DNA from: Gammaproteobacteria bacterium
Lineage (GTDB): Bacteria > Pseudomonadota > Gammaproteobacteria > Competibacterales > Competibacteraceae
Direction: 5' to 3'
Assembly: GCA_041396125.1 (NCBI GenBank)
Contig: JAWKZG010000014.1
Location: 116,229 to 180,228, forward strand
Length of the DNA stretch: 64,000 nt
In this document: positions 60,015 to 62,299 of the stretch, piece by piece
Layout of the letters: the number at the start of each line of letters is the position of its first letter
Numbering within the stretch: the first letter of the stretch is position 1
The notes under the pieces: generated by a model
Database searches by the model: none
The model's input: only the letters and a program-made list of their open reading frames with translations
Told to the model about the DNA's origin: nothing
Made by a program: the position numbers and the translations under genes

Positions 60015-60065
60015 GGTCTAACAACAGCATGCAGCGGACGGCGCTACGCGCCGCCGCTGATGCTG
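60015..60065 (+). other. attC B3 5' part (GTCTAAC + hairpin) interrupted by group II intron
   Basis: GTCTAAC complements cassette start TTAGAC; hairpin AGCATGCAGCGGACGGCG/CGCCGCCGCTGATGCT immediately precedes intron 5' GTGTG. Confidence 0.45.
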
Positions 60066-61925
60066 AGCGTGTGTGCCGGGCATGGCACGAAACGAGTCGG
60101 GTGAGAGTCCCGATACCAGGTATTCGCAGAGCCGAAGGTTAGGAGAAGGGCAAGGGCGTCATCGTGAGGTGGGGTCTGTAGGAAGCCCAATCCAAAGCGG
60201 CGGGGCGACGAACAGGAACTGGATACGAGGTGTGACACCGACGGGGCCAGTGGGCACGTGACCATCAAGCCCTCCATCTGCACGGGTCGGTGTTTTATAA
60301 ATCCAGCGTCTACGTCGCGAACGTTTCGTGTCTTACCCCGGGAGGTCTGTCAATTGTTCACGGATCGAACTGAAACGGGAGTAATCGCGTTTGATCGGTT
60401 GGCAGAAGTCAGCAGCGGGCATAGTAGGCGAGATCTCACCGCCGAAGGCCCAAACCTTTGTGGAAGTGACCGCCGGTGAAGAACCCATCGAACGCCTCAG
60501 CCCCGCAGCTTGCGCTGCCTCTGGTGATGCCGGAGGAGGAACGATGTGTTGAGGATCCGGACGACTCACCTTCCAAGACGAGCGCTTCATCGCTCATGGC
60601 GCAGGTATTGGAGCGGGAGAATCTGCTACGTGCGCTCAGACAAGTCCAACGTAATCGAGGTGCGCCAGGCATCGACGGCATGTGTGTCGAACAACTGTCT
60701 GGCTATCTCACCCTCCATTGGCCGCGCATCCGGACTGAACTGGCCGAAGGGCGCTATCGCCCCAAGCCGGTTAAGCGGGTCCTGATTCCGAAGCCTGACG
60801 GACGGCAACGCAAACTGGGTATTCCCACGGTCCTCGACCGTTTTATCCAGCAGGCGATTGCGCAAGTCGTGCAACGGCACTGGGAGCCGCACTTTCATGA
60901 CAACAGTTATGGATTTCGTCCCGGGCGCAACGCCCATCAAGCGATCAGGCACGCGCAGAGCGCGATCCGAGGCGGCAAGCGCTGGGTCGTTGACCTGGAT
61001 CTGGATGCCTTCTTTGATCGGGTCAACCACAGCCGCCTGATTCGGCGGTTGTACCGTCACCTGTCTGAACGTGGCCTGCTGCAACTGATCACTCGCTACC
61101 TGAAGGCGGGGGTCATGACAGAAGGCCAACGACAGGCGAGCGCCGAAGGGGTGCCGCAAGGCGGCCCCTTATCGCCGGTGCTCTCCAACGTCGTGCTCGA
61201 TGAGCTGGATTGGGAGCTGCACCGTCGAGGCCACACCTTTGCCCGTTATGCGGACGACTGCCAGGTATACGTCAGCAGTCAGCGAGCAGGCGAGCGGGTG
61301 ATGGCTCGTCTACAGCGCTATATCGAGCGGACCCTTCGACTCAAGGTCAACGCCGGGAAAAGTGCCGTGGACAAACCCTGGAAGCGTAGCTTCCTGGGCT
61401 TCACCTTCAGCCGCCGGGGTGCCCGGGTGAAAGTGGCCGAGAAGGCCATCGACCGCCTGCAAGCCAACATCCGGCAGCTGAGCCGTCGCACGAGAGGCTA
61501 CAGTTTGCGTCAGATCATCGCTGAGCTGAAGAAAACCCTGCTTGGATGGAAAGCGTACTTCGACTTGAGCGAGGTACTGAGTCCGCTGCGGGATCTGGAC
61601 AAGTGGCTGCGACGTCGATTGCGGTGTTATCAGTGGAAGCAATGGGGCCGCTCGGGGTATCGCCGTCTGCGCAAGCTTGGCGTTCCCCGGGTACTGGCCT
61701 GGAATACGGCCAAATCGGCGCATGGGCCTTGGCGTATCAGTCACAGCCCTGCACTGTACCAGGCGATGCCGAAGCGTTACTTTAGGGACTTGGGGCTGCC
61801 GGAACTGGCAGCACGATGAACCTCACAAAGGAACCGCCGTGGTACGTGATCCGTATGCCCGGTGGTGTGGGAGGAGAGGGGCTGCGAGGCCTCTCCCTAT
61901 CCCGATTATACGTAAGTAATGATCG
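60066..61925 (+). mobile_element. Group II intron (bacterial class C-like, attC-associated); boundaries approximate
   Basis: 5' GTGTGCC... (GUGYG) right after a stem-loop; RT/maturase ORF in domain IV; GC-rich D5-like hairpin GGGAGGAGAGGGGC...GCCTCTCCCTATCCC and short D6-like hairpin near 61870-61920. Confidence 0.55.
60476..61819 (+). CDS. Group II intron reverse transcriptase/maturase (no endonuclease domain)
   Basis: RT blocks 0-7 (PKPDGRQRKLGIPTVLDRFIQQA, YADDCQVYV) and maturase X domain; 447 aa. Confidence 0.9.
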   Translation: MKNPSNASAPQLALPLVMPEEERCVEDPDDSPSKTSASSLMAQVLERENLLRALRQVQRNRGAPGIDGMCVEQLSGYLTLHWPRIRTELAEGRYRPKPVKRVLIPKPDGRQRKLGIPTVLDRFIQQAIAQVVQRHWEPHFHDNSYGFRPGRNAHQAIRHAQSAIRGGKRWVVDLDLDAFFDRVNHSRLIRRLYRHLSERGLLQLITRYLKAGVMTEGQRQASAEGVPQGGPLSPVLSNVVLDELDWELHRRGHTFARYADDCQVYVSSQRAGERVMARLQRYIERTLRLKVNAGKSAVDKPWKRSFLGFTFSRRGARVKVAEKAIDRLQANIRQLSRRTRGYSLRQIIAELKKTLLGWKAYFDLSEVLSPLRDLDKWLRRRLRCYQWKQWGRSGYRRLRKLGVPRVLAWNTAKSAHGPWRISHSPALYQAMPKRYFRDLGLPELAAR

Positions 61926-62299
61926 AGAAACTGTTCGCGAATACGGTTTACGTGAAAGTCTTTCCGAATCGCTTTGAGCTAAAGCACATCGAGCCGGGAA
62001 GGTCAGAGGTGGAAGTAAGCAGTGAGCCATTCACAACGGCTAGGTTACTCGTGGGGAAATTTTCCGTAGCAGAGTGTGTTCTGAAGCGCGGCATGAAACG
62101 GTTGCACGAAAAAAGGTGGTTTTCGCCAAGTCCAATCGTGGTAATTCAGCCTATGGAAAAAACTGACAACGGCCTGAGTGAAGTCGAAGAAAGGGTCTTG
62201 CTGGAGTTGGCAGCTGGAGCCGGTGCACGAAAAGTATCTATATGGGTGGGGAACGAACTTTCGGATGATGAAGTCACCGAAAAGGCAGCACGCGCATAA
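61919..62299 (+). CDS. Truncated MreB-like (actin-fold ATPase) fragment, ~126 aa; real start may be GTG ~61961
   Basis: FSVAECVLKRGMKRLH..RWFSPSPIVVIQPMEKTDNGLSEVEERVLLELAAGAGARKV parallels MreB [52 protein letters not shown]; stops after phosphate-2 region. Confidence 0.5.
   Translation: MIEKLFANTVYVKVFPNRFELKHIEPGRSEVEVSSEPFTTARLLVGKFSVAECVLKRGMKRLHEKRWFSPSPIVVIQPMEKTDNGLSEVEERVLLELAAGAGARKVSIWVGNELSDDEVTEKAARA

Follow-up and report, generated by a model that had tools for sequence, protein, structure and literature searches.

Classical IIC-attC introns invade the bottom strand of integron attC recombination sites at TTGT/T in the R'' core and read opposite to the gene cassettes (PMC3001079, PMC7923331); they block transcription from the integron promoter (Pc) and supply an outward promoter (PMC3001079). 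Introns in the same orientation as the cassettes have been reported as well, namely a group IIC intron in a class 1 integron of E. cloacae (Rodriguez-Martinez et al., 2012, as summarised in PMC7923331) and a case in S. algae KC-Na-R1 (PMC9229058, 2022), which was found puzzling and ascribed to a possible "different invasion process". The elements of the IS1111-attC group (ISPa21, ISPst6) are also mobile elements specialised for attC sites; they differ in being DNA transposons, and they are reported from the antisense strand near the attC 5' end (PMC3001079). Here we describe a group IIC intron in 64,000 nucleotides of contig JAWKZG010000014.1 from a Gammaproteobacteria bacterium, a stretch that is called the window below and in whose positions all coordinates are given. 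An earlier reading of the same letters (the first-pass annotation) had proposed a class C-type intron, lacking a DNA endonuclease (En) domain, inserted after an attC stem-loop and in the sense orientation of the cassettes, and had remarked that attC introns are usually described as antisense, with which the literature agrees (PMC3001079, PMC7923331).

The element is very probably a group IIC intron, still intact, which entered the top strand of an integron attC by retrohoming. The complete intron occupies positions 60071-61906 of the + strand (1836 nt, 5'-GUGUG...GAU-3'), as defined by matches to Rfam models, by boundaries that align at both ends with those of about 45 related introns, and by a 99% identical copy (L001) with another 5' flank, which departs from the window sequence at 60067-60071. 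The junctions read ...CTGAGCGT / GUGUGCC...CCCGAU / TATACG.... The ribozyme from the 3' part of domain 1 to domain 4a (60158-60450) is covered by two full-length model matches, RF02001 (60158-60331; 120.3 bits against a gathering score of 32) and RF01998 (60370-60450; 46.6 bits against 35). A permissive Rfam scan matched RF00029, which represents domains V and VI (D5/D6), end to end at 61832-61906, finishing in ...CCCGAU (24 bits, E 0.057). This structure is kept across 21 relatives with nine compensatory base pairs in the consensus fold, most of which fall in the upper stem of D6, and the fold of the single sequence gives the same two helices. D5 (61833-61866, ACCGCCG...CGGUGGU, with the CGC triad at 61835-61837) follows from the RF00029 alignment and both folds; D6 (61868-61904) shows, in the consensus and single-sequence folds, a bulged A at 61899 that is the branch point and lies eighth from the 3' end. 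The intron has the six-domain ribozyme of class C, including D5 and a D6 with bulged branch A, and its ends (GUGUG, GAU) conform to GUGYG...AY. Its insertion is likewise that of IIC introns: a DNA stem-loop lies just 5' of it, intron-binding site 1 (IBS1) is short, IBS3 is a single base, and there is no long homing site.

A covariance-model search, which the first-pass annotation had named as the check on its proposal, placed the ribozyme on the + strand with D5/D6 present; none of the outcomes that it held would overturn the proposal (a ribozyme on the other strand, missing D5/D6, a retron reverse transcriptase) was encountered. Several of its boundaries need revision. The span of 60015-61961 was too wide, beginning within the attC and ending 55 nt inside the next cassette, and the GC-rich hairpin called D5-like is D6. 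The proposed GTGTG 5' end directly after the attC hairpin holds as to the motif; two overlapping copies exist, at 60069 and 60071, and the relatives, together with attC_aadA1, for which the uninterrupted site is known, fix the start at the second. A start at 60069 was rejected, as it leaves no GT for R' and the known attC_aadA1 sequence requires ...AAGCGT^TAGAT.

The intron-encoded protein (IEP; 60476-61819, + strand) comprises 447 amino acids from a GTG codon, and is a reverse transcriptase (RT) with a YADD motif and a maturase X domain. Pfam returned RVT_1 (2e-39) and GIIM (2e-14) only, and TIGR04416 was matched at 396.5 bits (cut-off 300). The protein has no internal stops and ends about 45 amino acids beyond the X domain; no DNA endonuclease domain was found in it by the Pfam and TIGR04416 profile search, as is usual for class C. 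An assignment to retrons, defence-associated (DRT) or abortive-infection (Abi) reverse transcriptases was considered and rejected (retron St85, 78.6 bits against a cut-off of 235; DRT models far under their cut-offs), and the presence of ribozyme domains on both sides of the open reading frame (ORF), on the same strand, speaks against a non-intron RT. Exact-protein look-ups with the RT and with the upstream cassette ORF gave no match.

The interrupted attC is the third downstream of an integrase (intI) remnant, the next after attC2, and its layout matches those of attC1 and attC2. Its 5' 55 nt, assigned to the top strand by their fold and layout, lie at 60016-60070 (+) and consist of the R'' core GTCTAAC (60016-60022), the spacer AACAG (60023-60027), an imperfect palindrome whose 5' arm has G60031 and A60038 bulged out, a second spacer (CTGAGC), and GT (60069-60070), with which the R' core begins. 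The other five bases of R', TATAC (61907-61911), identified from the flanks of relatives and from pairing with R'', follow the intron and at the same time open the next cassette. The intron therefore separates the second base of R' from the third (GT^TATAC), and the integrase crossover point lies one base 5' of it. IBS1 is GCGT (60067-60070), the end of exon 1, and IBS3 is T61907, a T being found at +1 in all unique 3' flanks. With the intron removed in silico, R' becomes GTTATAC, which pairs with R'' GTCTAAC at 6/7 positions. The rejoined attC of 60 nt folds at -22.5 kcal/mol (z -5.2), with the hairpin ending 5 nt before the intron, and its dot-bracket pattern equals that of the attC_aadA1 top strand, including the bulges at nt 16 and 23. 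The R' candidate of the first-pass annotation, GTTCGCG at about 61941, was discarded: it falls within the next ORF, and GT^TATAC makes it superfluous.

The intron lies in the same orientation as the cassettes, in the top strand of the attC. The truncated intI pseudogene (57495-58091; TIGR02249, 187 bits, profile positions 41-183 of 315) is upstream and on the - strand. attC1 (about 58419-58480, GTCTAAC...GTTAGGT), attC2 (about 58864-58926, ATCTAAC...GTTAGAC) and the last attC of the array all run from R'' to R' on the + strand. The upstream ORF ends 12 nt before R'' and the downstream ORF starts 13 nt after the intron, both co-oriented with it. Together with the bulges on the 5' arm these make four independent lines by which + is the attC top strand, and the intron is accordingly sense to the cassettes, as first proposed.

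The comparison with S.ma.I2-type introns that the first-pass annotation had suggested was made with five classical references, namely Kl.pn.I3 behind blaIMP-4 (located through blaIMP-4 matches that stop at the attC) and introns behind aadA1, dfrA14, dfrA12/orfF and dfrA16. Each of the five is antisense and has an exon 1 that ends in TTGT, and intI is on the far side in 3/3 classical loci. The window intron shares with classical IIC-attC introns (S.ma.I2, Kl.pn.I3, Sh.ba.I2) a class C ribozyme and an En-less IEP, and like them it lies inside an attC core at GT^T of the GTTRRRY box, past the attC hairpin, with a 4-nt IBS1 and a 1-nt IBS3. The differences concern strand and sequence. Classical introns are in the bottom strand and antisense, at TTGT^T in R'' beside the end of an ORF, whereas the window intron is in the top strand and sense, at GCGT^T in R' beside the following cassette. 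Their IBS1 TTGT is matched by an exon-binding site 1 (EBS1) of ACAA; the window intron combines IBS1 GCGT with EBS1 ACGU, and its RT is 41-46% identical to the five classical IEPs.

EBS1 ACGU (60256-60259) of the window intron, which pairs with IBS1 (A/G)CGU, lies in the loop GCACGUGA (60254-60261, +). All top-strand relatives have the loop GGCACGUGAC, with ACGU, except L038, which bears an internal deletion. In classical bottom-strand introns with exon 1 ending in TTGT the homologous loop reads GGCACAAGAC (ACAA), and in Kl.pn.I3, L091, L092 and L094 it reads GCACAAGA; the ACAA complementary to TTGT is absent from the window intron. The attC top strands in the dataset usually read RYYYAAC-AA...(A/G)C-GTTRRRY, so that the bottom strand offers TTGT^T and the top strand (A/G)CGT^T, and the classical introns, which carry ACAA, choose the bottom-strand mirror site, TTGT^T. 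Judged from this covariation, EBS1 would be the obvious discriminator of the target strand, and a difference of two bases in it appears to accompany the opposite strand choice and the opposite orientation.

A genome scan with the window RT yielded 80 loci, and flank statistics were calculated on unique flanks (44 for the 5' side and 58 for the 3' side). Exon 1 ends in CGT in 44/44 of these, preceded at position -4 by G in 29 flanks and by A in 12; the first base of exon 2 is T in 58/58, followed by A in 51, and most of these flanks read TRRRY. Apart from CGT at -3 to -1 and T at +1, no position is invariant across the flanks. About 37 of 41 loci have a co-oriented ORF whose end lies 5-160 nt (in most of them 45-120 nt) before the intron, another starts within 150 nt downstream in 41 of 55, and intI is upstream and divergent in all six top-strand loci that have intI in range. 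Bulge counts from minimum free energy folds of the relatives' attCs were too noisy for long, complex sites, and strand was assigned from ORF context, intI position and two known attCs. A T-run terminator upstream of the intron was seen at none of the clade relatives. The hosts include Marinobacter, Halomonas, Pseudomonas, Endozoicomonadaceae, Noviherbaspirillum and Ramlibacter as well as IncC resistance plasmids, and a scan with the intron 5' end added one more relative, in another top-strand attC with exon 1 ending in TCGT. In Halomonas socia CP049827, Noviherbaspirillum CP176528 and Kistimonas OZ220224, 5/5 copies would be co-oriented with replication if the records start at oriC, judging from coordinates alone; the GC skew of the window (+0.03 on the + strand) is too weak for a replication-strand assignment.

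The plainest examples of this orientation come from the class 1 integrons of two annotated plasmids. In pR148 (NC_019380) the gene order is intI1(-), qacL, blaOXA-10, aadA1(+), ltrA(+), qacEdelta1, and the intron is in the top strand of attC_aadA1 with the junction ...CTCAAGCGT^TAGAT (AAGCGT^TAGAT). In pPp47 (NZ_MG516912) intI1(-) is followed by blaIMP-4, qacG2, aac(6')-Ib4(+) and ltrA(+), with the junction ...CAAACGT^TAGAT. A pR148-type intron was found in eight further PLSDB plasmid records. Plasmid p4M9F carries a classical intron in the exact reverse complement of the attC_aadA1 occupied by the pR148 intron, at AATTGT^; the two lineages thus use mirror-image positions of one site, and each serves as the uninterrupted-site control of the other. 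The window intron resembles those of pR148 and pPp47 in being a class C intron that lies in the attC top strand and reads with the cassettes, with the same junction (A/G)CGT^T and an identical EBS1 loop; it differs in that theirs are clinical resistance arrays while the window copy is in a decayed chromosomal-type integron, and its RT is 62-66% identical to theirs (62% for pR148).

Copies nearly identical to the window intron were found in two other datasets, a sign of recent activity or exchange. One (L089) represents the same locus, with the same intron-plus-cassette unit, at 99.8% identity, and was the sole exact look-up match of the downstream ORF. The other, on a Bdellovibrionales contig (L001) of a metagenome-assembled genome (MAG), is 99% identical over window positions 60067-63432, comprising the intron and the downstream cassettes. 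Upstream of the intron (L001 1-92 against window 59979-60070) it has an unrelated top-strand attC, GCCTAAC AAAGC CATAACCGCGGACC...GGTTATG GCAGGC GT^. Homologous recombination between intron copies and independent homing would both fit this arrangement.

In one Gammaproteobacteria MAG, five 1842-nt copies with identical ends (L012-L015 and L041) were located behind five different top-strand attCs on four contigs, which points to active proliferation of the lineage there. In a Pseudomonas MAG contig (JAUCCC010000026.1; L005 and L010) a cassette-attC-intron-cassette unit occurs twice with identical flanks, about 12 kb apart; intron-bearing cassette blocks can evidently be duplicated within an array. 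The related intron of Marinobacter halophilus (L036, 3548-8022) measures 4475 nt and contains about 2.6 kb of inserted sequence close to the RT gene's 3' end, in which Rfam found no second intron and an insertion sequence (IS) is likely.

A neighbour-joining tree was built from 53 RT sequences (402 columns, 100 bootstraps), a limited sample confined to the relatives and classical references recovered here. The top-strand clade was recovered in 80/100 bootstraps and the classical clade in 100/100. The two grouped together in 2/100, so that the window IEP did not form a monophyletic group with the S.ma.I2-type IEPs, and the top-strand clade joined terminator-targeting IIC introns in 86/100. Common descent with the pR148 and pPp47 introns is borne out by the shared clade, the RT identity and the common EBS1 loop. 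The terminator-targeting outgroup consists of plasmid introns with canonical GC-stem/T-run targets, and all relatives recovered in this set insert after terminators or in attCs, as class C does. Compared with these (the IncC-backbone intron of p11663 and the plasmid introns L084-L087), the window intron has the same 5' GUGYGCC start and ...CUAUCCCGAU 3' end and lies likewise a few bases 3' of a DNA stem-loop, sense to the upstream gene; they are its closest outgroup by RT, at 50-52% identity. They differ in targeting GC stems with T-runs, in their varied exon ends (..TTTTGTA, ..TTTATG, ..TATCTT) and in having no R boxes. Within the limits of the neighbour-joining method and of this sampling, attC targeting appears to have arisen twice within class C.

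Other explanations of the locus were weighed. The attCs are near-palindromic and both of their strands begin with RYYYAAC and end with GTTRRRY, which leaves the strand ambiguous from the cores alone; a classical intron of the S.ma.I2/Kl.pn.I3 type in the bottom strand might then seem sense merely because a cassette or the whole array had been inverted. This is extremely improbable. An inversion does not agree with an intI upstream on the opposite strand, a single polarity for all attCs of the array, flanking ORFs co-oriented with the intron, and bulges that, like those of the attC_aadA1 top strand, fall on the 5' arm. Nor does a classical intron agree with an exon 1 ending in GCGT rather than TTGT, an EBS1 of ACGU rather than ACAA, and an RT only 41-46% identical to the five classical ones that joined them in so few bootstraps. 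A less remote, though still improbable, alternative is an ordinary terminator-targeting IIC intron, with no specificity for attCs, behind a hairpin that happens to be one. IIC introns recognise generic stem-loops, the RT clade joins the terminator-targeting plasmid introns in most bootstraps, and the bulges occupy the arm remote from the insertion, so that the hairpin may be read as a terminator-like stem. The relatives argue otherwise: their uniform flanks, CGT on one side and T, mostly TRRRY, on the other, reconstitute R' cores, intI is nearby at several loci, and no clade member lies behind a T-run terminator, whereas the sister lineages are behind GC-stem/T-run terminators with varied exon ends.

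The intron might, finally, be an inactive relic that has lost splicing and mobility and persists because the decayed integron is unselected. Such a history would suit the degenerate state of the integron (intI truncated and with a stop, an IS at 63451), the D5/D6 score under the Rfam threshold, and the damage seen in relatives, with an internal deletion in L038 and the 2.6-kb insertion in L036. It is unlikely in view of the intact 447-amino-acid ORF with YADD and X domain, of ribozyme elements, EBS1 and branch A that are all conserved relative to the clade, and of the copies with 99-99.8% identity in two other datasets, one of them behind a different attC. Retrohoming of an intact intron into the attC top strand remains our preferred reading, and the intron is probably mobile. 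A number of points count against it. One position of the restored R' GTTATAC does not fit GTTRRRY. No intron-less allele of the window junction came up in a metagenome scan with GTTATRCGTAAGTAATGATCGAGAAACTG, and the insertion point in the window consequently rests on homology and on the restored attC. The 24 bits of D5/D6 are under the Rfam gathering threshold of 40, an assignment supported nonetheless by its conservation with the nine compensatory pairs in 21 sequences. The activity of Pc is uncertain because the integron is decayed, with an intI pseudogene and an IS cutting the array. The part given to EBS1 in the choice of strand is correlative, drawn from two lineages, and we infer transcription, splicing and mobility by analogy with other group II introns.

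The integron is a decayed one of the chromosomal type, with cassettes of unknown function. The intI pseudogene has an in-frame TAG after residue 40 and has lost the 3' half of the gene. An attI-like GTTAGCC site comes after it, and just upstream of that site is a promoter-like TTGACA-18-TATTTT (58167-58196, +; 10/12 matches), a candidate Pc; no strong terminator was found between it and the intron. The GC-rich cassette upstream of the intron contains two overlapping ORFs on the + strand in different frames (58959-59465 and 59062-60003), neither of which matched a Pfam or NCBIfam family, and may represent a frameshifted gene. The downstream cassette ORF (61919-62299, +; 126 amino acids) is weakly similar to the YjaA stress-response family (NF041448, 71 bits; cut-off 125) and is followed by a degenerate-looking attC from 62293 to about 62440. 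A further cassette (62468-63250, +) has family matches to a RelE-like toxin and an Xre/MqsA-like helix-turn-helix antitoxin, and ends in a long attC of about 100 nt (63147-63250, +; ACCTAAC...GTTATGT). An IS4/Tn5-type transposase gene (63451-64000, -; Dimer_Tnp_Tn5 and DDE_Tnp_1 in Pfam) runs past the end of the window, and this IS appears to end or interrupt the cassette array.

A mechanism can be proposed from these comparisons and from established group II biology. The intron RNA would recognise the folded top-strand attC hairpin as a terminator-like stem-loop, with EBS1 ACGU pairing to (A/G)CGU, the last top-strand bases before the cut, and EBS3 to the T after it. Being sense, the intron would be co-transcribed with the cassettes from the integron promoter, for which 58167-58196 is the candidate; the RT/maturase would be translated from the cassette precursor transcript, and IEP-assisted splicing would restore a continuous cassette mRNA, ...GAGCGU/UAUACGUAAG. 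The En-less ribonucleoprotein may then reverse-splice into single-stranded attC top strands exposed in replication. Where classical introns block Pc transcription, a sense intron could instead be spliced out. Integrase recombination at the interrupted attC should be disabled, since five of the seven R' bases are separated from it by the intron.

The window intron is a new, divergent member of the known but rarely reported same-orientation attC introns, and the earlier reports make its novelty lower than the first-pass annotation implied. The sense orientation, presented there as an exception, does reverse the usual description; it is, however, the rule throughout this lineage. The field appears to know isolated same-orientation cases only. 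A description of them as a large, coherent lineage of environmental integrons was not found in the accessible literature, nor was a statement of the consistent EBS1 change and separate origin, although the 2012 E. cloacae paper and a 2009 target-site survey may already document both. With about even confidence we propose that the clade constitutes a second attC-specialised IIC lineage, of independent origin from terminator-targeting ancestors, widespread, directed by EBS1 to the top strand, always sense, co-transcribed from Pc and spliceable.

The attC top strand is thought to serve as lagging-strand template in sedentary chromosomal integrons, in which case this lineage may suit En-less retrohoming there better than the classical lineage does. 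A sense intron could be removed from the mRNA by splicing, with its own expression, and hence its mobility, tied to integron transcription, and an insertion one base from the integrase crossover should make one DNA unit of the cassettes on either side. Two bases of EBS1 may decide which strand of one recombination site a retroelement invades; the rule (ACGU with (A/G)CGT, ACAA with TTGT) is simple and testable, and would be useful for the study of IIC target recognition and for engineering. Members of the lineage are already present in clinical class 1 integrons on IncC plasmids, and the lineage therefore matters for resistance gene arrays.

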